Of a DNA stretch of 13,328 nucleotides, positions 2 through 12,999 are shown piece by piece. The translations under genes and the position numbers were made by a program. Below the pieces are notes generated by a model. The model saw only the letters and a list, made by a program, of their open reading frames with translations, made no database searches and was not told where the DNA came from. The DNA is from Methanosarcinales archaeon. Its GTDB lineage: Archaea > Nanobdellota > Nanobdellia > Woesearchaeales > CG1-02-33-12. The stretch spans positions 1 to 13,328 of the forward strand of contig JAFCBX010000019.1 of assembly GCA_017610505.1 (NCBI GenBank). Direction: 5' to 3'. Each line of letters starts with the position of its first letter. Positions within the stretch are counted from its first letter, which is position 1.

Positions 2-178
2 AAAATAAAAAAAGAGCTCCATAATTTCATAGAAACCAGGGATTTATTTACGTTCTCTCATCACAGCCTGATTAAAAACAGCCCAATACAATTGTTCCAC
101 AAGGCAATAGAAGGTCTTGGAACAAAAATCTCTGAACTAAAATTCAATGAGCTTGAAAACTTCAAAAAGAGGTTATGA
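2..178 (+). CDS. 3' end of an unidentified upstream gene (5'-truncated by the window edge)
   Basis: Frame 2 is open from the window edge to TGA at 176-178 (...HKAIEGLGTKISELKFNELENFKKRL*). Its stop overlaps the ATG of the next gene (ATGA at 175-178), a typical coupled operon junction. No family recognised. Confidence 0.4.
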   Translation, partial: KIKKELHNFIETRDLFTFSHHSLIKNSPIQLFHKAIEGLGTKISELKFNELENFKKRL

Positions 179-1878
179 TGAAAAAGCAAAAAAAAGGGGC
201 AAACAGGAAAAAATATTCCCCAACAAAGCTAATTAAAGGACTTGAGACTATTGAAATTAATAAGGAATTAATTGAGAATTCCTGGGACATTATAGTTGTT
301 TCAAATTTAAAAGCCAGAATTCTATATGTAAATAAAGCAGTTAAAAGGTATGGGTTTAGCAAGGAAGAGTTAATAGGAAAATTTTTGTATAAACTTATTC
401 CAAAAAAGCAAATACCTTTTCTGGCAAGTGAAATGATAAAGGTGCTGAAAGGAAGAATAAGCAAGGGGAATATGGAAGTCCTTACAAAAAAAGGCATTAT
501 CACCTGCGAATTTGTAAGCACTCCAATTAAGAAAAACGGCAAGGTAATTGCACTTCAGACCATTCTCAGGGGCATCACAGAGCGCAAGAAAGCAGATGAA
601 ATAATAAAAAAAGAGAAAAAATTTAATGAAACTCTTGTTCAGGTATCTCCTGCTTTTTTTGTTGCTATCAACGCTGAGGGCAAGACCATAATGATGAACA
701 AGGCAATGCTCAGCGCTCTTGGATACACACTAAAAGAAGTTGAGGGCAAAGACTATCTAAAGACTTTCGTTCCAAAGAGAGACCATAAGATGCTGTCCAA
801 AGTATTTGAAAAGCTGACAAAATTACATGGGGCGTCCTTGAATGAAAACCATATTTTGACCAAAGATGGTAAAGAACTGCTTGTTGAGTGGCATGGAAGG
901 CCAATCTTTAATGAAAATGGCAAATTTGACTATTTCTTTGGGGTTGGCATTGACATCACAGAGCGAAAAAAGGCAGAAGAAGAAACCCAAAGCCAAGCTA
1001 AATTCCTTTCTGAAAATCCTAACCCTATAATGCGTATTTCCCAAGATGGAATTTTATTATATGCAAATGGAGCTGCTTTGGCTCTTGGAGGAAAATTAAA
1101 AATAGGAAAACCAATAGAAGAAAAATGGAGAAAAATATCCAAAAAAACCTATGAAGATAATCAGATTACAGAGCAAGAAGTGCCAGTTGGAGATATATTA
1201 TATTTATTTACGATAATTCCTATTAAAGGTGCTAGCTATATGAATGTGTATGGAAGGGATATCACAAAGCAAAAGAAGGCAGAGGAAAATCTGAAGGAAA
1301 GCGAAGACAATTTCAAAAACCTGTTTGAAAACATGAGCAGCGGAGTTGCAGTTTATAAGGCAGCGAATAATGGCAAAGACTTCATATTCACAAATTTCAA
1401 CAAGGCTGGCGAAAAAATTGATAATATCAAGCTGGAAGATGTCATTGGAAAAAGTGTTCTTAAAGTATTTCCCGAAGTTAAAAAATTTGGACTATTTGAA
1501 ACCTTTCAGAGAGTATGGAAGACCGGCAAGCCTGAGCATCATCCAATCTCAATCTATAAGGACAAAAGATTGACTGGCTGGAGGGAAAACTATGTTTACA
1601 AGCTGCCCTCAGGCAGAATAGTTGCAATATATAATGATATCACAAAGCAGAAAAAGGCAAAGGAAGCATTGAAGGAAAGTGAAGATAAATTCAGAACAAT
1701 AAGTTCATCTGCCAGGGATGCAATTATTATGATTGACAATGAGGGGAAAGTTAATTATTGGAACTATGCAGCAGAAAAACTATTTGGGTATAAATCTAAA
1801 GAAATCTTGGGAAAAAACTTGCATAAGGTCATTACACCACAAAGGTATATCAAAGCATACATATGCAAGAGGATTTAA
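175..1878 (+). CDS. Multi-PAS sensor protein, N-terminal fragment (PAS 1-4 plus first half of PAS 5) of a frameshifted gene
   Basis: ATG at 175 (or 178) lies just downstream of AGAGGT. The sequence shows repeated PAS/S-box modules, each ending in a [DG]IT[EK][RQ]KKA[ED]E linker (GITERKKADE, DITERKKAEE, DITKQKKAEE, DITKQKKAKE). The third module carries the SENPNPI..ISQDG...YAN signature. The ORF stops at 1876-1878 in the middle of PAS 5 (...LHKVITPQRYIKA). Confidence 0.85.
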   Translation: MMKKQKKGANRKKYSPTKLIKGLETIEINKELIENSWDIIVVSNLKARILYVNKAVKRYGFSKEELIGKFLYKLIPKKQIPFLASEMIKVLKGRISKGNMEVLTKKGIITCEFVSTPIKKNGKVIALQTILRGITERKKADEIIKKEKKFNETLVQVSPAFFVAINAEGKTIMMNKAMLSALGYTLKEVEGKDYLKTFVPKRDHKMLSKVFEKLTKLHGASLNENHILTKDGKELLVEWHGRPIFNENGKFDYFFGVGIDITERKKAEEETQSQAKFLSENPNPIMRISQDGILLYANGAALALGGKLKIGKPIEEKWRKISKKTYEDNQITEQEVPVGDILYLFTIIPIKGASYMNVYGRDITKQKKAEENLKESEDNFKNLFENMSSGVAVYKAANNGKDFIFTNFNKAGEKIDNIKLEDVIGKSVLKVFPEVKKFGLFETFQRVWKTGKPEHHPISIYKDKRLTGWRENYVYKLPSGRIVAIYNDITKQKKAKEALKESEDKFRTISSSARDAIIMIDNEGKVNYWNYAAEKLFGYKSKEILGKNLHKVITPQRYIKAYICKRI

Positions 1879-2935
1879 AAAATTCCAAGTTACAGGAAAT
1901 GGTGCTGCAGTAGGGAAAACACTTGAATTAAATGCCCTGAAAAAAGATGGAACAGAATTTCCTGTTGAATTATCCATGTCCTCAGTTAAGATAAAAGGAA
2001 AATGGAATGCAATAGGAATGATAAGGGATACCACCGAAAGGAAAAAGGCAGAAAATATATTACAGGAAAAAGAGGGATTGCTTAGAGCTACACTTGAATC
2101 AACTGATGATGGCATTCTTGTGGTAGATGAACAATGGCATGTTACCCACACAAACACTAGATTTACAAAGATGTGGAAAATACCAAAGAAAATCATCCAA
2201 ACAGGTGATGATAGGAAGTTGCTTGACTATGTTCTTAACCAGTTGGAAGACCCGCAAGCATTTCTTTCAAGGGTTAAACAATTGTACAAGACACCAAAGG
2301 AAAGCCTTGATATAATCACTTTCAAGGATGACAGGGTTTTTGAGCGCTTTTCATGTCCTTTGATTCAAAAGGGAAAAGTCACTGGGAGGGTTTGGAATTT
2401 TAGAGATGTCACAGAGCGCAAAAAGGCAGAAAACGCAATACATGAAAGTGAAGAAAGATACAGGGCAACATTTGAAAGCACTGGAACAGCAATGATGATT
2501 ATTGAGGAAGACACTACAATTTCTCTAGCCAACCATCAGCTTGAGCTATTGGCTGGCTATTCAAAACAGGAAATTGAAGGCAAAATAAGCTGGACAAAAT
2601 TTGTCCACAAGAAAGACCTTGAAAAGATGAAAAAGTATCACAAGGAAAGAAGAAAACAAGAAGGAAATGCCCCTAAACAGTATGAATTCCGCTTTATTGA
2701 TAAAAATAAAAATATAAAAAATATCTTCCTCACAGTAAATGTTATTCCAGGAACAAAAAAAAGTATAGCATCATTAATGGATATTACCGAGCGCAAACAA
2801 ATAGAGCAAGAAATTAAAAAAAGAAACGAAGAACTTGAAAAGTTCAACAAGTTTGTGGTTGGCAGAGAGCTTAAGATGGTTGAGTTAAAGAGGAGAATAA
2901 AAAAGCTTGAGGCAAACTTAGGAAAAAAGAGGTAA
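1733..2935 (+). CDS. Multi-PAS sensor protein, C-terminal fragment (second half of PAS 5, PAS 6-7, conserved C-terminal helix) of the same frameshifted gene
   Basis: Frame 2 continues the interrupted PAS fold from about 1856 (HTYARGFKKFQVTGNGAAVGKTLELNALKKDGTEFPVELSMS...RDTTERKKAE). Two more PAS modules follow (RDVTERKKAEN, DITERKQIEQ). It ends with EELEKFNKFVVGRELKMVELKRRIKKLEANLGKKR*. The track start at 1733 is a TTG inside the overlap and is probably not a real start. No kinase, GGDEF, HTH or other output domain is present. Confidence 0.85.
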   Translation: MTMRGKLIIGTMQQKNYLGINLKKSWEKTCIRSLHHKGISKHTYARGFKKFQVTGNGAAVGKTLELNALKKDGTEFPVELSMSSVKIKGKWNAIGMIRDTTERKKAENILQEKEGLLRATLESTDDGILVVDEQWHVTHTNTRFTKMWKIPKKIIQTGDDRKLLDYVLNQLEDPQAFLSRVKQLYKTPKESLDIITFKDDRVFERFSCPLIQKGKVTGRVWNFRDVTERKKAENAIHESEERYRATFESTGTAMMIIEEDTTISLANHQLELLAGYSKQEIEGKISWTKFVHKKDLEKMKKYHKERRKQEGNAPKQYEFRFIDKNKNIKNIFLTVNVIPGTKKSIASLMDITERKQIEQEIKKRNEELEKFNKFVVGRELKMVELKRRIKKLEANLGKKR

Positions 2936-2938
2936 AAA

Positions 2939-3796
2939 ATGAATGATCTTTTGATATCATTAGGGCAGACAATGTTTAATCTACTTGTTTTTGTTTCATT
3001 TTCTGTGACAATCATATATTTGCTTACTAAAAATAAAAGATTTGCAGATTTTCTTGTATCAGAAAAACCAAAAATTAAATACCAAATTATAGCTGTGATA
3101 CTCTTTGGGATAATTATAATTTTGGCATCAAAATACGCAATTATTGTTATGGGAGCGCGCATTAACATCAGGACTTGTATAGCAATATTCTCCGGAATTC
3201 TTGCAGGTCCAGCAGCGGGCATTGCAGTTGGATTAATAGGGGGGATTTACAGGATGGCTTTGGGTGGATGGAGTGCACTCCCTTGCGGTTTGGCTACAAT
3301 AGGTGCAGGTATGATAGGGGCTTATCTTTATAAGTATAAAAACTATAAGATAAAAAATATAACCCTTAAGCAAATAGGGATAATAACCCTAATAGTTGGG
3401 GTATGGGAATTTATTCATATAGAGGTTCTTGTTCCTCTTTTAGGGGAAAAGCCCATACTTGAGGCATTATCAATTGCAAATCCTCACCTTATCCTGCCAA
3501 TGGCATTGCTGAATATGCTTGGCATAGTAACATTCCTCTTGGTATGTAAAGATACTAAAGAATTAAGAGAGAGTATAAAGATAAAAGAAGATGCCATAAA
3601 AACTAATGTTGAAGCCAGGCAATTGTTGGAAGAACATGTAAAGGAAAGGACTATTGAACTAGAAAAATCAAAGGCTAAACTGCAGTCAAAAGTAGAGGAA
3701 CTGAAAAAATTCAATAATCTTACAGTCGGAAGAGAGATGAGAATGGTTGAATTGAAGAAAAAAGTAAAAGAGTTGGAAGAAAAAATTAAGAAGTAA
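2939..3796 (+). CDS. Membrane sensor with a LytS/YhcK-type 5TM receptor domain (5TMR-LYT-like) and a C-terminal coiled coil; no output domain
   Basis: ATG at 2939 is preceded by AAAAGAGGTAAAAA, 3 nt after the upstream stop. About 5-6 hydrophobic helices are present, with the glycine-rich 5TMR-LYT signature GARINIRTCIAIFSGILAGPAAGIAVGLIGGIYRMALGGW. A cytoplasmic tail of about 85 aa ends in VEELKKFNNLTVGREMRMVELKKKVKELEEKIKK*. Confidence 0.8.
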   Translation: MNDLLISLGQTMFNLLVFVSFSVTIIYLLTKNKRFADFLVSEKPKIKYQIIAVILFGIIIILASKYAIIVMGARINIRTCIAIFSGILAGPAAGIAVGLIGGIYRMALGGWSALPCGLATIGAGMIGAYLYKYKNYKIKNITLKQIGIITLIVGVWEFIHIEVLVPLLGEKPILEALSIANPHLILPMALLNMLGIVTFLLVCKDTKELRESIKIKEDAIKTNVEARQLLEEHVKERTIELEKSKAKLQSKVEELKKFNNLTVGREMRMVELKKKVKELEEKIKK

Positions 3797-3836: not shown

Positions 3837-5117
3837 ATGAAATTTTTGAATGTTCCAGTGGGACACAAAAAAAGTGAAACTTTTTTTCGCGTTAATGAGA
3901 AAAGCTTGGAAAATTTTAATTTATTAAAAAAAAGTTCTGTATTCTTAATATTATTAGTGATAATATTTTCCGCATTTATTTCAGGGTGCTCAAATCTTCA
4001 ATCAAAGCAGGAAACAATAAAAATAGTTGCCAGTTTTCCTATGAGGGAAATTGATGTTGGGCAAGATATTGTTAATGGAATTAAATTAGCCCTTGAGGAA
4101 GCTGATTATACGGCAGAAAACTATAAGATTAAGTTAGTAGTAGAGGATGGCGGCGATGAAACAGGCACTTGGCAGGCATCTATAGAAAGAGAAATAGCAA
4201 AAAGAGCTGTAGAAGATCCTGACGTAATGGTTTATTTAGGAACGTATAATAGCGGTGCGGCAAAAGTTAGCATCCCCATTACAAATCAATGGGGGCTTGT
4301 TCAGATAAGCCCGGGGAATACATGGCCAGGATTAACAAAGCCAGGTTTCTTTCCTGGAGAGCCAGGTTTATTTTACCCAACAGGAGTGCGGAATTATTTT
4401 AGGGTTTGCCCAAATGATGCAGTGCAGGGTCCAGCTGGGGCTGTCTGGGCCAAAGAAATGAAGTTACAAAATATTTACATATTTGATGACGGAGAAGCAT
4501 ATGGCAAAGGAATTGCCAATATTTTTGAAGAAAAAGCAACTGAACTGGGTTTGAACATATTAGGGCACAAAACTCTTGACAAAAAGTCAGAAGATTTTAC
4601 AGGAGAGTTAAGCAAAATCAAAGATTTAGATTTAGACCTTATTTATTTTGGGGGTATAACACCCAATGGAGCAGTTCCATTGGTTAAAGGCATTAAAGAG
4701 TTAGGAATAACCGCTGAATTCATGGGACCTGATGGCATCATGGAGCAGGCTTTTATAGGCCAGGCAGGAGATGCTGCAGAAGGGACATATGTGGCTGTTG
4801 TTGGAATGCCTACAAAAGGGCTTAAAGGGAAAGGAAAGGAATTTTATGAAAATTACCTGAAGCAATACAGTAAAGAGCCAGGGGCATTCTCAGGTTTTGG
4901 TTATGAAGCAACTAAAGTGGCCTTATTAGCAATTGAAAGGGCTGGTGTAAAAAATAGAGCAAAAATTTTAGAAGAAGTATCAAAAATAAAAAACTATGAC
5001 GGGCTTTTTGGGACTTGGAGTTTTGATAAATATGGTGATACTACTTTAACTATTGTGAGCGGAAATATAGTAAAAAACAAGAGTTTTGTTTTTGAAAAAT
5101 TATTATCCTCAAAATAA
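3837..5117 (+). CDS. Extracellular solute-binding lipoprotein, LivK/branched-chain-amino-acid-binding type (Peripla_BP_6-like)
   Basis: ATG at 3837 has AAGAGGT 7 nt upstream. The signal peptide carries a lipobox-like FISGC|SN. Type-I periplasmic binding-protein motifs run throughout (IKIVASFP...GQDIVNGIKLALEE, YLGTYNSGAAKVSIPITNQWGLVQISPGNT, YFRVCPNDAVQGPAGA, IYIFDDGEAYGKGIA, DLIYFGG, GYEATKVALLAIERAG). Confidence 0.85.
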   Translation: MKFLNVPVGHKKSETFFRVNEKSLENFNLLKKSSVFLILLVIIFSAFISGCSNLQSKQETIKIVASFPMREIDVGQDIVNGIKLALEEADYTAENYKIKLVVEDGGDETGTWQASIEREIAKRAVEDPDVMVYLGTYNSGAAKVSIPITNQWGLVQISPGNTWPGLTKPGFFPGEPGLFYPTGVRNYFRVCPNDAVQGPAGAVWAKEMKLQNIYIFDDGEAYGKGIANIFEEKATELGLNILGHKTLDKKSEDFTGELSKIKDLDLDLIYFGGITPNGAVPLVKGIKELGITAEFMGPDGIMEQAFIGQAGDAAEGTYVAVVGMPTKGLKGKGKEFYENYLKQYSKEPGAFSGFGYEATKVALLAIERAGVKNRAKILEEVSKIKNYDGLFGTWSFDKYGDTTLTIVSGNIVKNKSFVFEKLLSSK

Positions 5118-5133
5118 TGAGATTATAAGCAGA

Positions 5134-7047
5134 ATGGAAAAGAGTATTAAGGCAATATTCAGTAGGATTGGATTAAAATTAATAATCCCTTATTTAATAA
5201 TCTCTTTTTTTACTTTAATATTAATTGCAGGATTAATTTACTATAATTATAATGTACAAATTGATTCTATCCAAAAAATTCAGGAAGAAATTTCATTAAA
5301 ATCTAGTTCTGAAATTAATTATTATATTAAAAATATTATTGATGAATTGGATTTATTTAGCAAGGATATTGGTAAAACTAACCGCTTTGAAAAAAATTTA
5401 AACATAAAAACCTTAAAAAATTTAATTGATTATGACCCAAGTATTTATTCACTTTCAATTATTAATATAGAAGGAAATGAAATAACTAAAATTGTTAGAT
5501 ATAACCCGAAGGCATCTTTAGAGTTAAGGGATGTTTCTTCTCAGGAGAAATTTAAGAAAGCACTTGAAGAAGGAATTTATTTGAGTGATATTTATATTTC
5601 TGAATATAAAGTTCCTTTTATTTCAATTAGTTTGCCAATATTAGATGAAAATAACACAATAATTGGGGTTCTTACTTCTGAAGCTGATTTAAGCCCTATG
5701 TGGGGAACTATATCTAAAATAAGGGTTAAAAAAACAGGGTATGTTTATGTTGTAGATCAAAATGCAAACCTTATAGCATATAAAGATGTAAGTTTAGTTA
5801 AGAAAAAGTTAAATCTAGAGCATATTCAAGGTGTGAAAAACTTTTTGAATAATATCCCTAAATCTGAAACTTACACTTCATTTAATAATGAAAAAGTTAT
5901 TGGTACTTGGAAATCAATTGATATTGCTGGTTGGGGCGTAATTGTAGAATTGCCCTATAAAGAAGTATCTCAAGAACTATTAGTGCTTCTCTTTATTGGT
6001 TTGAGCTCATTTGTTATATTTATTCTATTTATAATTATAATTTTAATAATTATTTTCAAAAAATTATTAGCACCACTTAGCTATTTACAAAAAGGGGTTA
6101 TGGAAGTTAAAGGTGGGAACTTAGATTACAAGATCAATATAACATCCAAGGATGAAATTGGTGAACTTGCCTTTGCTTTCAACCAAATGACTAAGGATTT
6201 AAAAAAGTCAAGGGCAGTTATTGAGAAACACACTGAGAATCTGGAAAGAGAGGTTTCCAAAAGGACAAAAGAACTTAATGAAAATTTCAAAGAGGTTAAT
6301 GATACAAAAACAGCTGCATTAAATATGATGGAAGATCTGCATGAAGCAAATGAAGAGCTTAAAGAGCTTGATAAGGCAAAATCAAATTTCCTGAATATAA
6401 TATCCCATGAATTAAAAACCCCATTAACAGCAGTAATAGCACATCTAGGTGTGTTGGAAGACTTAAAAACAAATCTGACTCCTGATGAAATAAAAAGTGT
6501 GGAAGCAATAAAAAGGAATACAAGCAACCTGAAAATGCTGATAGAGAATATACTGGAAACCTCAAGAATGGAGGCTAAAAAATTTGAGATAAACCTGACA
6601 AAAGTCAGCCTTGAATATCTAATTAAAATGGTCGTGGCAGATTTAATGGTTTTATCAGAGAAAAAAGGGCTAAAGCTAATAACAAAGATAAGCAAATTGC
6701 CAAAAATCTCAATGGATGAGGAAAGGACAAGGGAAATATTAAACAACCTTATTACCAATGCAATTAAATTCACTGAAAATGGCTCAATTACAGTAAAAGC
6801 CAAAAAAATAAGGAATTATATTTCAGTGGATGTAATAGACACAGGCATAGGTATATCAAAGGAAAACTTAAAAAAGATATTTGAGAAATTTTACCAGATC
6901 GACCCTTCTCTAGCAAGGAAATATGGGGGAACAGGTCTTGGGCTGTCAATAACAAAGCAGTTGGTTGAGGCGCAGGGAGGAAAAATAAGTGTAAAAAGTG
7001 TTTTGGGCAAGGGCTCAACATTTTCATTTAAATTACCTATAAAATAG
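5134..7047 (+). CDS. Sensor histidine kinase: TM, Cache-like extracellular domain, TM, HAMP, coiled coil, HisKA, HATPase_c
   Basis: The preferred start is ATG 5134 (MEKSIKAIF...). The track start at 5086 is a TTG that overlaps the upstream gene by 32 nt. Two TM segments flank an extracellular domain of about 250 aa with Cache-like motifs (IIGVLTSEADL, KKTGYVYVVDQNANLIAYKD, GWGVIVELPYKE). Downstream come HAMP (LAPLSYLQKGVMEVKGGNLDYKINITSKDEIGELAFAFNQMTKDL), an S-helix (AALNMMEDL), the H-box FLNIISHELKTPL, the N-box NLITNAIKFT, G1 DTGIGI and G2 GGTGLGLSI. Confidence 0.9.
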   Translation: MEKSIKAIFSRIGLKLIIPYLIISFFTLILIAGLIYYNYNVQIDSIQKIQEEISLKSSSEINYYIKNIIDELDLFSKDIGKTNRFEKNLNIKTLKNLIDYDPSIYSLSIINIEGNEITKIVRYNPKASLELRDVSSQEKFKKALEEGIYLSDIYISEYKVPFISISLPILDENNTIIGVLTSEADLSPMWGTISKIRVKKTGYVYVVDQNANLIAYKDVSLVKKKLNLEHIQGVKNFLNNIPKSETYTSFNNEKVIGTWKSIDIAGWGVIVELPYKEVSQELLVLLFIGLSSFVIFILFIIIILIIIFKKLLAPLSYLQKGVMEVKGGNLDYKINITSKDEIGELAFAFNQMTKDLKKSRAVIEKHTENLEREVSKRTKELNENFKEVNDTKTAALNMMEDLHEANEELKELDKAKSNFLNIISHELKTPLTAVIAHLGVLEDLKTNLTPDEIKSVEAIKRNTSNLKMLIENILETSRMEAKKFEINLTKVSLEYLIKMVVADLMVLSEKKGLKLITKISKLPKISMDEERTREILNNLITNAIKFTENGSITVKAKKIRNYISVDVIDTGIGISKENLKKIFEKFYQIDPSLARKYGGTGLGLSITKQLVEAQGGKISVKSVLGKGSTFSFKLPIK

Positions 7048-7061
7048 GGGAGGTGAACAAA

Positions 7062-7511
7062 ATGAAACCAATGAAAATTAAAAATTTTCATGGTTCTGAA
7101 AATTCAAAGAATTTTCAAGAACTTTCAAAGAAAGGTTTAGAGAAACCGAAGGTTTTTCAAAAAAAAATACTTTACATAGAGGACAATGAGGATACTGCTG
7201 ATGCAGTAAAAGCAATCCTGACACATGCCGGCTTTGAAGCAGATATATCCCTATCTGGAAAAGGTGGAATAAAAAAAGCAGAGAAAATGTTTGACTTAAT
7301 CCTAATAGACATAATGCTTCCTGACATGTCTGGATGGGATGTCTTTACAAAGCTGAATAAGAAAACAAAGGCAAAATTTGCTTTTCTCAGCGCTATTCCT
7401 GTATCAAATGAAAGGATGAAAGTTCTGAAGAAGGCAGGAATCTCAGACTATATAACAAAGCCATTTGAAAAGGATGACTTAATCAATAGAATAAAGAAAA
7501 TATTAAAATAA
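7062..7511 (+). CDS. Stand-alone CheY-like response regulator (REC only) with a Lys-rich N-terminal extension of about 35 aa
   Basis: GGGGAGGTGA at 7047-7056 lies 5 nt upstream of ATG 7062. The track start at 7053 is a GTG inside that SD sequence. REC motifs are present: ILYIEDNED, the phospho-acceptor context DLILIDIMLPDMSG, and ITKPF. No DNA-binding or enzymatic output domain is present. Confidence 0.88.
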   Translation: MKPMKIKNFHGSENSKNFQELSKKGLEKPKVFQKKILYIEDNEDTADAVKAILTHAGFEADISLSGKGGIKKAEKMFDLILIDIMLPDMSGWDVFTKLNKKTKAKFAFLSAIPVSNERMKVLKKAGISDYITKPFEKDDLINRIKKILK

Positions 7512-7548: not shown

Positions 7549-8028
7549 ATGACATCATTATTAATAATCACTTCAGTAGAAAAACTGCAAACCAGGGTAA
7601 ACTCTGTGGTAAAATCCTTTAAAAATATCCCTGGAATTTATGTTTCCTTAAACAAAACCCAAAAAAGCACAGAAAATATTCTCAGGAAAAATAAGATAAA
7701 TACAAACAAAATATTTTTCATAGACTGTGTTACATCTGAAAAAACAAAGGAGGATGTCTTGCATATAGCGCCTGACCAGCTTGACTTATTGAGCTCTGCA
7801 ATCAACACTTTTATAAAAGACATTAAAGGAAAAAAATTTCTGGTTGTAGATGCATTGTCAACCTTATTAATTTACAATGATGAAAACAAGGTTGTCAAGT
7901 TTGTCAAGGAAGTTACTGAGTATGCCTCCCAAAATGATGTAAAAGTTACGGCTTTCAGCCCTAAAACAAAGGGGGAGGAATTATTAAACAAAATATTCAA
8001 TTTTTTTGACGAGGTAAAAAAAAGATGA
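7549..8028 (+). CDS. Hypothetical protein; possible degenerate RecA/KaiC-superfamily domain lacking a Walker A P-loop
   Basis: ATG 7549 has AGGA 9 nt upstream. The strand/helix pattern resembles KaiC/RadA-like modules (GIYVSLNKT...IFFIDCVT...LLSSAINTFIKDIKGKKFLVVDALSTLLIYND...VKFVKEVTEYASQNDVKVTAFS), but no GxxxxGK[ST] is present. The CDS call is solid; the fold assignment is by-eye and weak. Confidence 0.6.
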   Translation: MTSLLIITSVEKLQTRVNSVVKSFKNIPGIYVSLNKTQKSTENILRKNKINTNKIFFIDCVTSEKTKEDVLHIAPDQLDLLSSAINTFIKDIKGKKFLVVDALSTLLIYNDENKVVKFVKEVTEYASQNDVKVTAFSPKTKGEELLNKIFNFFDEVKKR

Positions 8029-9346: not shown

Positions 9347-10846
9347 ATGGAGAACAAATCTGATTTAAGAATCAATTATCCTCAATATACTGGAAGAAGA
9401 TATGTTTTTGCAATAAAGGACAATCCACAAAACAAGCCCTTAATAGCTGCAGAGGCTGCTTTTATTGCAGATGTCATGATAACAAAACCAAGTATTCTCA
9501 AAAAACAATTTCAGGCTTCTTTAGAATATCAGGAACAAAAAAAGAGTTACATCCCACTCATAGATTTAAGTAGAAAGTATGGTGTTTACACAGGAGAGAA
9601 AAAAGCAGATGAGAGTCTGCAGTTAAGATACAAAAGGTTAACTGACTTAAGTTTGGATGAACTGGTTTTTGCAATTCTGGAAAAAATCCACACAAAAACA
9701 GGGGCAAAGAACCTTTACTATAAATCAGGAGAAGAATACTTTAATATAGAAGAAAGCGGGCAGGGAGGAGGCATACCCTATGCAGGACCAATTGTTTTGA
9801 CAGCTCCTGTAAGGGCAAAGGCAGATGGCAGGAGAAAAGGCAAGGGCATCAGGAAAATTGAAATAGAGGGCTATTTTGAAACAAGCAAAATTCCATTCAA
9901 CAGTATTCATTCAGAGTCAGAGGACTTTTTCTATACCCTTACAAAGCAGGGTTACACAGGAGGGCATTTACTCACAACAGAAGTACAGGCCCTGCTGCTT
10001 TATGCAAAAAGAAATCCTAGTAAAATCAAAAACCTAGAGAACCTAATGAAATCAGATTCAAATCTAAAAATATTCACACCAATCCATACTAGAGAATCAC
10101 AGCTTAAAACATTGGAAAAATATACAATAAAAGAAGATGATTTTATGAAGAAGGGTGAACAACCAGATCTGACAATGCTCAGGGATGATATACTCTTTGA
10201 CTGGCTGTTTAATGGAACAAACTTCTTTGAGATAGGAAAGAAAATAACTAAGATACCAACAATTGTTGATATAAAACTAGCTGATAAGGTATATAATGAA
10301 ACTGCTGATCTTGAGGTAGTTGTAAATAACTACATATTTGATAAAAGCAATACCTTTATACCAAAACCAGTAAGGGCTTTTTTTGAATTAATGCATAAAA
10401 GACTGATTTGGGATGGATTCAAGCGAGAGGGTTACTGTCTTGAGAAAAGGGATTCTGAAAATGAGACAATAGCAATGGTTTATGAAAAGGGGGATAAGTC
10501 CATAAGGCTCTTATTCAACCAAAATTTTCCACCTTTGGTTCTAAAGCGTGTAAAAAACCCACGGTTTGAAGTAACACCATTCAGAGTCGAAGAAAAAAAC
10601 AACAAAATACATCCTTTCTCTGAACTTTTTATGCAAAAAGATGTATTTGATGACAAGACAAGGGCAAGGACAGATTACCAAGTTGTTATCCCAACAGAGT
10701 TTAAAATTCCAAGAGAGCTTTGGCATGATTATAGGATAATGATTAACAAATATTTTAAAGGCAAAGGCAATCGTCTTGAAAAGCAGTTAAGAATAATGAA
10801 TATCCCTAACAGAGATAGAATTCTGGATTTAATAAAAATGTCTTGA
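9347..10846 (+). CDS. Hypothetical protein, 499 aa, no recognisable domain (ORFan by eye)
   Basis: A long uninterrupted ORF with non-repetitive, mixed-charge composition unlike the antisense shadow ORFs. No P-loop, HNH, DEDD, zinc-finger or HTH signature could be identified. A basic patch is present (RAKADGRRKGKGIRK). Confidence 0.75.
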   Translation: MENKSDLRINYPQYTGRRYVFAIKDNPQNKPLIAAEAAFIADVMITKPSILKKQFQASLEYQEQKKSYIPLIDLSRKYGVYTGEKKADESLQLRYKRLTDLSLDELVFAILEKIHTKTGAKNLYYKSGEEYFNIEESGQGGGIPYAGPIVLTAPVRAKADGRRKGKGIRKIEIEGYFETSKIPFNSIHSESEDFFYTLTKQGYTGGHLLTTEVQALLLYAKRNPSKIKNLENLMKSDSNLKIFTPIHTRESQLKTLEKYTIKEDDFMKKGEQPDLTMLRDDILFDWLFNGTNFFEIGKKITKIPTIVDIKLADKVYNETADLEVVVNNYIFDKSNTFIPKPVRAFFELMHKRLIWDGFKREGYCLEKRDSENETIAMVYEKGDKSIRLLFNQNFPPLVLKRVKNPRFEVTPFRVEEKNNKIHPFSELFMQKDVFDDKTRARTDYQVVIPTEFKIPRELWHDYRIMINKYFKGKGNRLEKQLRIMNIPNRDRILDLIKMS

Positions 10847-10904: not shown

Positions 10905-11744
10905 ATGTCAAAAAAATACTCAAAAGAAAATATAGAAGGAATTCTAAAAAGCCTTAAAGGTGGGGTTATTATGGATGTAACCGAGTTAGGACAAGCACAA
11001 ATAGCCCAGGAGGCAGGGGCTGTTGCAGTAATGTCATTATACATGGTTCCATCTGATATTAGAAAAGAAAAGGGACATTATGGAGAAGCAAGAATGCTTG
11101 AAGCTCTTGGAATTGATTTTATAGATGAAAGTGAAGTACTAACTCCAGCAGATAAAAAATACCATATAAACAAGAGAGAATTTAAAGCACCATTTGTCTG
11201 CGGTGCACGTGACCTGGGAGAGGCATTGAGGAGAATTTATGAAGGGGCTATGATGATAAGAACAAAGGGAGAGGCAGGAACAGGTGATATAAATCAGGCA
11301 ATAGAACATATGAGACAAATCAGGAAAGAGATAGCAGAGCTTGTTGGCTTATGGGAATATAACAAGTTTCTGATTAAAGAAGGCAAAAAAGGTATGGAAG
11401 ATGAGCTAAGAAGAAAGGCCCTAAAAGAATATGAGGTCCCATATGAGCTTGTATATGAAGTTGCAAAATCAGGAAAACTTCCAGTATTAAACTTTGCAGC
11501 AGGAGGAATAGCAACTCCTGCAGATGCAACCTATATGATGAAGCTAGGAGCAGATGGTGTCTTTGTTGGAAGCGGGATATTTAAATCAGAAGATCCAAAA
11601 AAAAGGGCAAAGGCAATAGTTGAGGCTGTCAGATATTGGAATGACCCTGCTAAGCTGTTAAAGGTTTCCAGAGGTTTAAAGGAGGCAATGAAAGGCACTG
11701 CAATAGACTCTTTAGAAGAAAAAGATAAAATGCAGCATAGATAA
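10905..11744 (+). CDS. pdxS: Pyridoxal 5'-phosphate synthase subunit PdxS homolog with an internal in-frame gap (possibly inactive)
   Basis: GGGGTGAG lies 5 nt upstream of ATG 10905. Strong PdxS motifs are present: [82 protein letters not shown] and AMKG. An archaeal-type insertion follows the RQIRKEI region. The GVARM...IPVMAK.RIG segment is missing (see findings). Confidence 0.85.
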
Positions 11745-12276: not shown

Positions 12277-12999
12277 TTATTTCTTTATTTTCAGATTTAA
12301 TTGTTTCTCAAGTTTTGCAATCCTTTCCTTAAGTTCAATCATTTTCAATTCCCTGTTCGTTGCAAATTTGGTGAATTTTTCAAGATTTTCTACCTCTGAT
12401 TTCAAAATTCTTCTTTCTGTTGGTTCAGATAAATGCCATTTTTTATCTGTTTTGTATAGAATCATATTATGAGATTGTATAACATCAATAAGATCTGGAA
12501 TTGAAATGTTCTTTACAGGATAAGTACACATCAATAAAATTAACCTTTTACTATATTTTTCAGTAAGACCTTTTTCGTAAACAAGGACTTTTTTGAGCAA
12601 TTTACTCTTGACCCAAGACATATCTCCTGCTGCCCTTATTCCATCAATGTCTTTGAAGCCAATACTATTAAGTTTTTTATCAATCAACCTATACACTTTT
12701 TCCTTAGTGAATATATTATTCTTAAAATAGAATGTCTTGTAATGTATAAATTCAATCTTCTTTTCTTTAGTATATTTTTGCAAGTCAACAATTCTTGAAA
12801 TTTCTTTTTTAATCTTTTGCTTAAGCGCAGTATTTGGGTAGACTACTATGCAAAGTTCATTATTCTTAAGACCACTTGCAAAAAAAGAAGGAAAAATCTC
12901 TAGGAGGTCTGATATTTTCTCATAAAGCATGACTATATGGGTCCCTTGCTCAACCTCTCCTTTCATAAATCCTAGCGGATTATACTTCCTTTTAAACAT
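12277..12999 (-). CDS. MEDS-domain sensor protein ending in the same conserved C-terminal helix; no output domain
   Basis: The N-terminus matches the MEDS (methanogen/methylotroph DcmR sensory) signature: GTHIVMLYEKISDLLEIFPSFFASGLKNNELCIVVYPN ... IRAAGDMSWV ... LLMCTYP. The C-terminus is NLEKFTKFATNRELKMIELKERIAKLEKQLNLKIKK*. Confidence 0.75.
   Translation of the reverse strand: MFKRKYNPLGFMKGEVEQGTHIVMLYEKISDLLEIFPSFFASGLKNNELCIVVYPNTALKQKIKKEISRIVDLQKYTKEKKIEFIHYKTFYFKNNIFTKEKVYRLIDKKLNSIGFKDIDGIRAAGDMSWVKSKLLKKVLVYEKGLTEKYSKRLILLMCTYPVKNISIPDLIDVIQSHNMILYKTDKKWHLSEPTERRILKSEVENLEKFTKFATNRELKMIELKERIAKLEKQLNLKIKK

Follow-up and report, generated by a model that had tools for sequence, protein, structure and literature searches.

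What does a sensor protein do when it has no recognisable output domain? The role of thousands of proteins is blank for this reason, and three of them are encoded in the stretch of AT-rich archaeal DNA analysed here (the window, 13,328 nucleotides). According to their ORF translations, a multi-PAS protein, a 5TMR-LYT membrane protein and a MEDS protein end in a common C-terminal helix of about 35 residues (Table 1). The copies read ELEKFNKFVVGRELKMVELKRRIKKLEANL-GKKR-stop, ELKKFNNLTVGREMRMVELKKKVKELEEKI-KK-stop and NLEKFTKFATNRELKMIELKERIAKLEKQLNLKIKK-stop, respectively; the MEDS copy, with ATNRELKM, is the most divergent. We trained an HMM on 106 copies of this tail from other genomes, with no window sequence among them, and scored it on all six frames of the window. 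Exactly three segments were recovered, at 61.3, 56.9 and 40.4 bits (E = 8e-19, 2e-17 and 3e-12), and the next-best segment scored 6.9 bits. K, E and L are abundant in the three segments, and profile searches of the PDB with the tail returned generic coiled coils only, at E > 0.04, as would be expected if the likeness were a chance one among Lys/Glu-rich coils. That explanation is refuted by the independent HMM, which stays at or below 7 bits elsewhere in the window and does not match the Lys/Glu-rich coiled coil of the window kinase in the six-frame scan; we consider it practically negligible.

Table 1. Sensor genes, terminal helices and kinase cassette of the window (nucleotide coordinates).
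Feature	Coordinates	Strand	Basis and remarks
Multi-PAS sensor gene, without output domain	175..2935	+	Pfam: PAS only; split into ORFs 175..1878 and 1733..2935
Putative transmitter helix copy 1, multi-PAS protein	2807..2935 (with stop codon)	+	Residues 359-399, end of ORF 1733..2935; 61.3 bits to independent HMM
5TMR-LYT membrane sensor gene, without output domain	2939..3796	+	PF07694 over residues 36-205
Putative transmitter helix copy 2, 5TMR-LYT protein	3677..3796	+	Residues 247-285 plus stop codon, end of ORF; 56.9 bits
Periplasmic solute-binding protein (Peripla_BP_6), stand-alone input protein	3837..5117	+	Pfam; between helix genes and kinase
Histidine kinase: dCache_1, HAMP, NxLED coil, HisKA, HATPase_c	5086..7047	+	Pfam and motif; proposed partner of helix proteins
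NxLED coil module of kinase, KRTKELNENFKEVNDTKTAALNMMEDLHEANEEL	6262..6375	+	Between HAMP and H-box, outside any Pfam model
Response regulator, receiver domain only	7053..7511	+	Last core gene of helix-kinase-regulator cassette
MEDS sensor gene, without output domain	12277..12999	-	PF14417 over residues 20-177
Putative transmitter helix copy 3, MEDS protein	12277..12405	-	Residues 199-240 plus stop codon, end of ORF; 40.4 bits

The sequence-only reading of this locus held that three sensors end alike and share nothing but the tail. Both claims are borne out, the second in the sense that the proteins have no other Pfam domain in common (PAS, 5TM-5TMR_LYT and MEDS, respectively). The coordinates it gave for the 30-residue strings were off by one codon (the true starts are 2831 and 3698), and the gene of what it called the 7-PAS protein is two overlapping ORFs, because of an apparent frameshift near 1857-1862. 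Indeed, tblastn with an orthologue of the multi-PAS protein changes frame at nt ~1859, and locus L132 encodes an unbroken 1230-aa orthologue with the same terminal helix. The 5TMR-LYT orthologues P0170-P0172 have an architecture identical to that of the window protein, and the helix is kept in 15 of 15 full-length MEDS homologues on other contigs (38-75% identity, DPANN-type). When modeled with AlphaFold2, the 5TMR-LYT protein has a single helix over residues 185-284. The tail (residues ~221-285, pLDDT about 86-93) is the end of this roughly 100-residue unbroken helix, which begins in the last transmembrane helix. A helix break at T-V-G was rejected, as the model is continuous there.

An exhaustive profile search found the tail in 13,826 clusters (50% identity) at E <= 1e-3 and in 929 at E <= 1e-10, from both Bacteria and Archaea. 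Its core of ~26 residues, EL-E-[RK]-F-x-[KR]-L-[TA]-V-G-R-E-L-[KR]-M-[IV]-E-L-K, is 85-100% conserved at most positions across the two domains of life (n = 300). The match is followed by a median of 4 residues, and by 20 or fewer in 136 of 139 non-redundant complete genome-encoded ORFs; among the best database matches the median is 5. Internal copies occur in large multi-sensor proteins, likewise without outputs. Preceding the tail in two sets of 89 and 102 members are PAS, HAMP, GAF, Cache, HisKA_7TM, REC, PocR, flavodoxin, protoglobin and CHASE4 domains, with MEDS to be added. No catalytic output domain is among the 25 families listed per set, and a kinase-core HMM that we built matched none of the helix proteins. 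Databases name them "PAS domain S-box protein" or "PocR ligand-binding domain-containing protein." The tail is a widespread, sequence-specific helix family, terminal and placed after input domains only. The early view of it as a dedicated module rather than a generic coil is thus upheld by family size, independent HMM and cross-phylum conservation, and its position, proposed to be always C-terminal and alone after the sensory domain, is essentially always so. The idea that similar strings are linkers inside larger kinases did not hold, since the helix is found in 0 of the 68 + 51 kinases of the fetched loci.

We then considered whether the tail is a piece of something known. The sequence-only reading would have been refuted if the tail were simply the start of a known domain cut short, and this check was negative in Pfam, in NCBIfam and by hhalign against DHp profiles. 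No family of Pfam-A 2025 or NCBIfam 20.0 covers the tail in the window proteins, and no curated family is common to most of the 89 or 102 members. The hhalign probability against DHp profiles was 2.9%, so the tail profile does not resemble that of the HisKA phosphoacceptor helix; a degenerate H-box (GRELKM versus SHELRTP) was rejected on this basis. The tail has no His and carries Arg at the position nearest to the H-box equivalent, and Pfam HisKA has no match in the three window tail proteins. Nor is it HAMP (PF00672), being a single helix that stands downstream of the HAMP match in HAMP-containing members. Decay of kinases by fission or truncation, with the helix as the leftover start of a lost domain, would account for the frameshift in the window multi-PAS gene and for a resemblance between the upstream half of the tail and the pre-DHp coil of kinases. 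It is very improbable given strong conservation, also of the stop position, in thousands of clusters, retention of the helix in the MEDS homologues, the lack of DHp/H-box similarity (hhalign probability 3%) and the absence of even partial Pfam or NCBIfam matches over the tail.

Genes around the tail point to a partner. In the window, two helix genes are followed by the binding protein, the kinase and the regulator, with a DUF7090/DUF835 gene directly after the regulator. The kinase carries a second, previously undescribed coil motif, A-[LM]-L-N-[IM]-[LM]-E-D, which we call NxLED; in the window it reads LNMMED from nt 6319, between the Pfam matches to HAMP (to residue 373) and HisKA (from residue 431). 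The fuller coil, ...RT.EL..[RK]..EL..[ST][KR].A[LM]L-N-[IM][LM]-E-D..., lies before the phosphoacceptor (DHp) helix or before an inner PAS domain. We found no description of the tail or NxLED motif strings in the literature, and the link of tail genes to kinases is likewise new here; a census of archaeal two-component systems does not describe the tail (PMC5847659). Among 82 loci, sampled as those most similar to the DPANN query and for that reason possibly biased in lineage, 40 have a same-strand kinase within three genes downstream of the helix gene, often at overlapping or 1- to 12-nt junctions. NxLED is present in 32 of the 40 nearest downstream kinases versus 10 of 27 other kinases of the same loci (Fisher p = 7e-4), and of the 41 loci that have a kinase among the next six same-strand genes downstream, 38 have an NxLED-bearing gene there. 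For the reciprocal test, NxLED kinases were picked from metagenomes by pattern alone, with a narrow NxLED alignment as the query. A helix-terminated gene lies within three genes upstream in 18 of 28 informative non-redundant loci, and none lies upstream in the other 10. Genomics therefore points to the partner class guessed at first from the kinase two genes downstream. The association could also reflect common ancestry of the operon type, not direct contact between helix and NxLED.

The order helix, NxLED kinase, regulator recurs across loci, with a regulator almost always after the kinase. Tandem helix genes can precede a single kinase, up to seven of them in L042. Solute-binding and FIST proteins recur between helix genes and kinase in other loci, including a solute-binding orthologue (61% identical) at the same position in L066. 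General programmed read-through from helix gene into kinase was rejected, as at most junctions the two genes are in different frames (-4, -1, -8, -11 nt).

Could the tail dock on another common partner, such as the regulator, the inactive-KaiC-like DUF7090 protein, a CheR-type methyltransferase or another protein, the NxLED kinases being mere operon company? The near-constant place of the regulator after the kinase and the DUF7090/DUF835 gene next to it in the window would fit. So would CheR genes, which three Bacteroidetes loci have between helix gene and kinase and which are absent from most loci and from the window; methylation of a signaling helix (S-helix) is known for RsbK/RsbM (PMC4574943). 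Orphan helix genes would fit as well: about 40% of helix genes have no nearby kinase (36 of 82 loci, 12 of these with little downstream sequence), and no kinase adjoins the MEDS tail gene in the window or at its orthologues. Against this, no non-kinase neighbour of helix genes is conserved across lineages, the intervening genes being heterogeneous input-type proteins, and nothing but NxLED distinguishes helix-linked kinases from the others in those loci. A conserved small partner beside the MEDS-helix genes was sought and rejected, since the downstream ORFs of 91-97 aa are mutually unrelated. We consider another partner quite unlikely.

If the partner is the kinase, where would the helix bind? 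The simplest kinases are informative. In L051, the entire non-catalytic part of the kinase consists of three 21-residue NxLED repeats, and its gene starts 3 nt after a PAS-helix gene. The L063 kinase has five such repeats followed by more coiled coil and directly abuts a PAS-helix gene. By hhalign, tail and NxLED modules have a common in-register leader of 20 residues and then diverge; the mean charge of the cores is +3.2 for the helix and -1.9 for NxLED. As we read the logos, each core also has hydrophobic residues on faces other than the a/d seam, equally far from the RT anchor in both. Contact is more likely at the NxLED coil just upstream of DHp than at DHp itself.

A simpler role would be that of a homodimerisation zipper or stalk cap, the sensors signaling through other surfaces (e.g., PAS-PAS) or buffering ligand, and the NxLED link reflecting a shared pathway. 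The plain continuous helix that prolongs the sensor stalk in the AlphaFold2 model is in keeping with such a cap, as are tail heptads that continue the S-helix register (as defined in PMC1592074) and the PAS domain that many downstream kinases have of their own. A zipper has no need, however, for near-invariant G, R, E, M and E-L-K on all faces in Bacteria and Archaea, after ten unrelated N-terminal domains. The tail logo has heptad-spaced hydrophobic positions at -16, -9, +5, +8, +12, +15 and +19. In its central segment Thr and Arg occupy core a/d positions, with hydrophobic residues on the outer faces, which makes for a poor simple dimer. In kinases of the L051 type, the only surfaces on offer are NxLED repeats and the catalytic core. 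Finally, P0176/L131 joins residues 10-212 of the window 5TMR-LYT protein (58% identity) to a window-type kinase core (416-651, 39% identity), with the regulator next; this fusion, a single protein cluster, has neither helix nor NxLED, so the covalent arrangement does without the helix. We regard the zipper as unlikely.

Two apparent helix-kinase fusions, P0148 and P0152 (helix, linker, NxLED repeats, HisKA), were downgraded as Rosetta stones. They belong to a GC-rich lineage, their C-termini seem to be read in the wrong frame, and L051 and L063 keep the same two genes apart; read-through or a frameshift probably produced them. Four sensors (P0040, P0083, P0147 and L042:9010-9762) have NxLED and helix in one continuous coil, which a simple one-plug-one-socket picture does not predict.

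The tail looks like a variant of the S-helix (Anantharaman, Balaji and Aravind 2006, PMC1592074) that ends proteins rather than leading into an output domain. Both are parallel coiled coils of ~40 residues directly after sensor or receiver domains, with conserved polar residues at core positions; by AlphaFold2 and logo, the tail is a ~40-residue helical segment of five heptads adjoining the sensor domain. Aligned in the same register, the Arg of RT, the R/K at +7 and the Arg of GRE all fall on d positions. The S-helix "ERT" occupies c, d and e of the central heptad, and the tail has its own invariant triplet, G-R-E, with Arg likewise at d. R-T at -20/-19 of the tail occurs in only ~25% of 300 copies, and (E)RT.EL, where present, lies 20 residues before G-R-E; of the window copies, the 5TMR-LYT one has it (KERTIEL), while its presence in those of the PAS and MEDS proteins is not clear. 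By definition, an S-helix connects an upstream input domain with a downstream effector domain (PMC1592074), whereas the tail is the protein end in 136 of 139 cases, with no effector domain after it. The tail signature ELE[RK]FxKLTVGRELKMIELK is not described in that paper.

Other systems resemble parts of this arrangement. Stand-alone sensors regulate a co-encoded histidine kinase in trans in H-NOX/HnoK, NosP/NahK, LuxP/LuxQ and TorT/TorS. Here too, a separate input polypeptide is encoded beside kinase and response regulator, and FIST and solute-binding proteins are found in the same operons. Sensors of the H-NOX, NosP, LuxP and TorT type bind via globular domains in a family-specific way, whereas the tail is common to at least ten unrelated input domains and paired with a conserved kinase-side coil. 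NosP-type FIST sensors are mentioned in PMC12570481. "Short" LOV proteins such as PpSB1-LOV (PMC4589677, PMC9758184) are likewise PAS-type sensors with a C-terminal dimeric coiled coil, no effector domain and a partner nearby. Unlike the tail, their J-alpha helix has no motif conserved across phyla, and one of these proteins has as its reported effector a transcription factor of the LitR type rather than a kinase (PMC4589677, PMC9758184). In Bacillus cereus, RsbM is a CheR-type enzyme that methylates the S-helix of the kinase RsbK (PMC4574943); as proposed here for NxLED kinases, a conserved coil upstream of the kinase core serves as the regulatory site in RsbK, and CheR genes occur in the three Bacteroidetes loci.

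These data suggest, with somewhat better than even odds in our judgment, that the tail is a dedicated transmitter coiled coil that non-covalently couples stand-alone sensors to NxLED histidine kinases. Physical contact and the geometry of the bundle are inferred. Each tail protein would be a stand-alone input subunit in which the helix follows a sensor or receiver domain, and the paired tails of a sensor dimer would pack on the NxLED segment of a kinase dimer, giving a heteromeric bundle of helices. When a signal shifts the sensor stalk, the movement would then reach DHp and alter autophosphorylation and phosphotransfer to the co-encoded response regulator. Like HAMP and DHp, such an assembly would be a four-helix bundle through which conformational change passes down a stalk. 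In HAMP and DHp each chain supplies two helices in cis, whereas the tail would contribute one helix per chain, between molecules, and Pfam HAMP and HisKA models do not match it. One kinase could serve several different sensors. The window kinase would receive input from the multi-PAS and 5TMR-LYT proteins, beside its own Cache domain and the binding protein, and the MEDS protein may act in trans on this kinase or another. A bolder version, to which we give somewhat less than an even chance, is that GRELKM tail and NxLED are a universal, orthogonal plug and socket, with many sensors, even receivers, on one kinase and possibly one dimer per 21-residue repeat.

Annotators gain two new profile models, one for the tail helix and one for the NxLED coil. 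Thousands of proteins annotated just as "PAS domain S-box protein," "HAMP domain protein," "MEDS" or "PocR domain protein" would gain a testable function. If the proposed coupling is true, it would explain how kinases without a sensor of their own get input, add a non-covalent, modular coupling principle to two-component signaling and offer two compact, possibly orthogonal coiled-coil parts for synthetic sensor-kinase rewiring. If the plug and socket is true, combinatorial multi-input kinase complexes would be a major unrecognised architecture, especially in CPR bacteria and DPANN archaea.

We built an HMM of the tail helix from 106 copies in other genomes, excluding the window sequence, and scanned the window with it in all six frames. 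The model picked out exactly three segments (61.3, 56.9, and 40.4 bits), and no other segment exceeded 7 bits, the Lys/Glu-rich coil of the window's kinase included. Since an independent HMM selects just these three and leaves the rest at or below 7 bits, the likeness among the tails is real and specific. The sequence-only reading had held that three sensors share one terminal helix that is not a generic coiled coil, and the HMM agrees on both counts. Some details changed: the copies stand, but their coordinates were off, the quoted strings starting one codon earlier; the third copy does end the MEDS protein, on the minus strand; and the "7-PAS protein" has its tail but is read as two overlapping ORFs.

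Copies of the tail helix in the window
Feature	ORF	Strand	Location
Tail helix copy, PAS protein	1733..2935	+	C-terminal end of ORF
Tail helix copy, 5TM-5TMR_LYT protein	2939..3796	+	C-terminal end of ORF
Tail helix copy, MEDS protein	12277..12999	-	C-terminal end of ORF

The first multi-PAS ORF (175..1878) passes into the tail-bearing one by a frameshift within a PAS domain (window 1850-1880, near nt 1857-1862). At this site an unbroken orthologue from another locus (L132; 1230 aa) reads ...PQRYIKAYAKEFEKFQITGNG, whereas in the window frame 1 gives ...PQRYIKAY and frame 2 continues with (T)YARGFKKFQVTGNG. The sequence is consistent with a 4-nt ATAT insertion; the frameshift could be an assembly error, or the gene could truly be split or a pseudogene. 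A Woesearchaeota bin (L045) has copies of the two adjacent helix genes at 88% and 71% identity, which makes a DPANN archaeon of Woesearchaeota type the probable source of the window, itself an entire metagenomic contig of 13,328 nt.

The tail defines a large family. Exhaustive HMMER searching of 1.84 billion cluster representatives returned 13,826 proteins at E<=1e-3, of which 929 reached E<=1e-10. When genomes were scanned for the peptide pattern [LF][TV]VGREL[KR]M, at least 513 places were confirmed, in taxa that include archaea (DPANN, Methanosarcinales, Methanomassiliicoccales, Thermoplasmatales) and bacteria (CPR/Patescibacteria, Bacteroidetes, Planctomycetes, Delta- and Gammaproteobacteria, Spirochaetes, Chloroflexi, Omnitrophota, Verrucomicrobia, Acidobacteria). 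The logo of 300 distinct copies reads [RK]-x-x-E-L-E-[RK]-F-x-[KR]-L-[TA]-V-G-R-E-L-[KR]-M-[IV]-E-L-K-x-x-[IV]-x-x-L, with 85 to 100% conservation at most positions. The helix is essentially always C-terminal: a median of 5 residues follows it in the best database matches, and a median of 4 in non-redundant complete ORFs from genomic and metagenomic loci, 136/139 of which have 20 or fewer. A rare nonterminal copy (L060:9317-10360) is followed by a Cys-rich tail of about 70 residues (CW..C..CP..C..C..C) that may form a metal or Fe-S site.

The architecture is input-only. Input domains precede the helix throughout, PAS making up about half of two tallies (89 and 102 members); the others are HAMP, GAF, dCache/sCache, HisKA_7TM, receiver, PocR, flavodoxin, protoglobin, CHASE4, and 5TMR-LYT, with MEDS seen in the window. 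Among the families listed for these members there was no catalytic output domain, and a purpose-built kinase-core HMM did not match the helix proteins. Internal copies occur only in very large multi-sensor proteins (dCache-HAMP-PAS-[helix]-PocR-PAS-[helix]), also without outputs, and two proteins of 59 to 62 aa (P0001 and P0003) are scarcely more than the helix. In an AlphaFold2 model of the 5TMR-LYT protein, made from a 22-sequence alignment, a single helix runs from residue 185, in the last transmembrane segment, to 284, with pLDDT of about 86 to 93 in the tail; the model shows no break at T-V-G.

We considered that the tail might be the truncated N-terminus of a known domain, the case that would have undone the sequence-only reading. 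No such domain was found. Neither Pfam-A (2025) nor NCBIfam (2026) has a model over the tails of the window proteins, and the tails of the 89 and 102 other members have no family in common. PDB profile searches returned only generic coiled coils (E>0.04). The truncation reading fails because profile-profile comparison with the HisKA DHp/H-box region was negative (probability 2.9%). By these searches, the tail helix is outside every curated family. Members carry public names such as "PAS domain S-box protein" or "PocR ligand-binding domain-containing protein" and nothing more specific, and literature searches with motif strings and descriptions of such proteins found nothing relevant.

We then mapped kinases and regulators in 82 loci, a sample in which relatives of a DPANN query are over-represented. 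A recurrent cassette consists of at least one helix-terminated gene, zero to two other genes, a same-strand histidine kinase, and at least one response regulator, with junctions often of -4 to +12 nt. The kinases of this cassette have a further conserved coil in common, NxLED (...RT.EL..[RK]..EL..[ST][KR].A-[LM]-L-N-[IM]-[LM]-E-D-x-[DE]-E...), covered by no Pfam model. The NxLED HMM matched 32/40 nearest downstream kinases versus 10/27 of the remaining kinases of those loci (Fisher p=7e-4), and an NxLED-bearing gene was present in 38/41 loci having a kinase within six same-strand genes downstream. In the reverse direction, a metagenome scan for [KRS]xA[LM]LN[MI][LM]ED gave 43 loci with 32 nonredundant kinases. 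An upstream gene was visible for 28 of these; a helix-terminated gene lay no more than three genes upstream in 18 and was absent in 10. This enrichment is extreme, since helix proteins account for less than 1 per 100,000 protein clusters. For about 40% of helix genes, there is no kinase in the vicinity. The new finding is this conserved, co-encoded class of kinases with NxLED as the likely partners of the helix proteins.

Other stand-alone input proteins (among them FIST, several solute-binding families, ODP, STAS-like, CheR) lie between helix genes and kinase. In CPR loci L014, L028, L056, L060, and L118-L123, this place is taken by a family of about 200 aa without a Pfam match. The most helix genes per kinase were observed in a Nealsonbacteria MAG (L042:3062-11090): seven consecutive helix-terminated genes, the last also with NxLED, and after them a single NxLED kinase and a regulator.

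The window's gene order (multi-PAS-helix, 5TMR-LYT-helix, Peripla_BP_6 binding protein, kinase, regulator) matches the cassette exactly, and its kinase reads dCache-HAMP-...TAALNMMEDL...-HisKA-HATPase. The binding protein and kinase have an orthologous pair in locus L066 (61% and 56% identity), where two helix genes also precede. Directly after the receiver-only response regulator lies a DUF7090/DUF835 (inactive KaiC-like) gene (7549-8028), whose product may be the output of the window's two-component system; MEDS has also been classed as inactive-KaiC-like (PMC5847659). The MEDS helix copy has no kinase nearby. All 15/15 full-length MEDS homologues from other contigs keep the tail, and they sit amid housekeeping genes with no conserved neighbour. 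Elsewhere in the window are a 499-aa ORF (9347-10846) without a Pfam or NCBIfam match and a PdxS homologue (10905-11744; 375.6 bits versus an NCBIfam cut-off of 395) in which about 30 profile positions are absent, residues 57-279 aligning to profile 89-296.

NxLED is a conserved histidine kinase module without a curated model (window 6262-6375; kinases in L002-L126). It occurs with HisKA and HisKA_2 cores, about 24 residues before the H-box in the archaeal type and before an inner PAS domain in the CPR type. Minimal kinases carry it in three to five tandem 21-residue repeats. The L051 kinase (317 aa), whose start lies 3 nt past a PAS-PAS-helix gene, consists of three repeats and DHp-CA; that of L063 has five repeats, then more coiled coil, and a HisKA_2-type core. 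Neither kinase has a sensor of its own, and outside the catalytic part each consists mainly of NxLED coil. At L051:10080-10135, in a Methanomassiliicoccales MAG, the PAS-helix gene and the kinase are in one frame, with nothing but TAG-AAG between them, ahead of the ATG. A read-through fusion is conceivable here because Methanomassiliicoccales decode TAG as pyrrolysine in some genes. In P0148 and P0152, helix and kinase appear fused, probably as an artefact of read-through. A one-piece 5TMR-LYT-HisKA-HATPase kinase, P0176 (L131:186-1532; regulator next), joins the equivalents of window 5TMR-LYT residues 10-212 (58% identity) and window-type kinase residues 416-651 (39% identity). It lacks both tail helix and NxLED, as expected if both coils would serve only noncovalent coupling.

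Four sensors carry NxLED and tail helix in one continuous coil. The two motifs share an in-register 20-residue leader (RT.EL..[RK]..EL) and diverge after it (hhalign columns 2-21 versus 2-21, E=3.6e-4). In this common register the mean net charge per 20 residues is +3.2 for the tail core and -1.9 for the NxLED core. As we read the logos, both cores have hydrophobic residues beyond the a/d seam at equal axial level, where the tail helix has Thr and Arg at a/d; this pattern would suit a bundle of more than two helices. In Bacteroidetes MAGs (L018, L038, L073), a receiver-containing helix protein precedes a CheR-type methyltransferase, after which come hybrid kinases, one with NxLED. This resembles RsbM/RsbK, in which RsbM methylates the S-helix of RsbK (PMC4574943), and by analogy one of these coils may be methylated.

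H-NOX, NosP, and LuxP are trans-acting sensors. Functionally, the helix proteins resemble these and the effector-less "short LOV" proteins (PMC4589677, PMC9758184) but differ in having one short motif across many unrelated input domains and a conserved kinase-side motif. Structurally, the tail comes closest to the S-helix (PMC1592074), likewise a coiled coil after input domains with Arg at core "d" positions; its upstream RT.EL has a counterpart in a minority of tail copies (R-T in about 25% of 300). The tail differs in its own signature and in lacking the S-helix's defining link to a downstream effector. On this comparison we class the tail as S-helix-like but terminal: a probable transmitter module whose cognate would be the kinase coil.

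The family, its terminal placement, its input-only make-up, and its genomic linkage to NxLED kinases are established. Helix proteins are probably coupled functionally to NxLED kinases. We lean modestly toward the fuller statement, that the tail is a terminal transmitter coupling sensors to these kinases; direct contact between tail helix and NxLED is a tentative suggestion. In the bundle geometry that we infer, a sensor dimer would present two transmitter helices, and the pair would pack onto the NxLED segment of the kinase dimer. Shifts driven by the sensor would pass into the DHp, and different sensors with the same tail would converge on one kinase.
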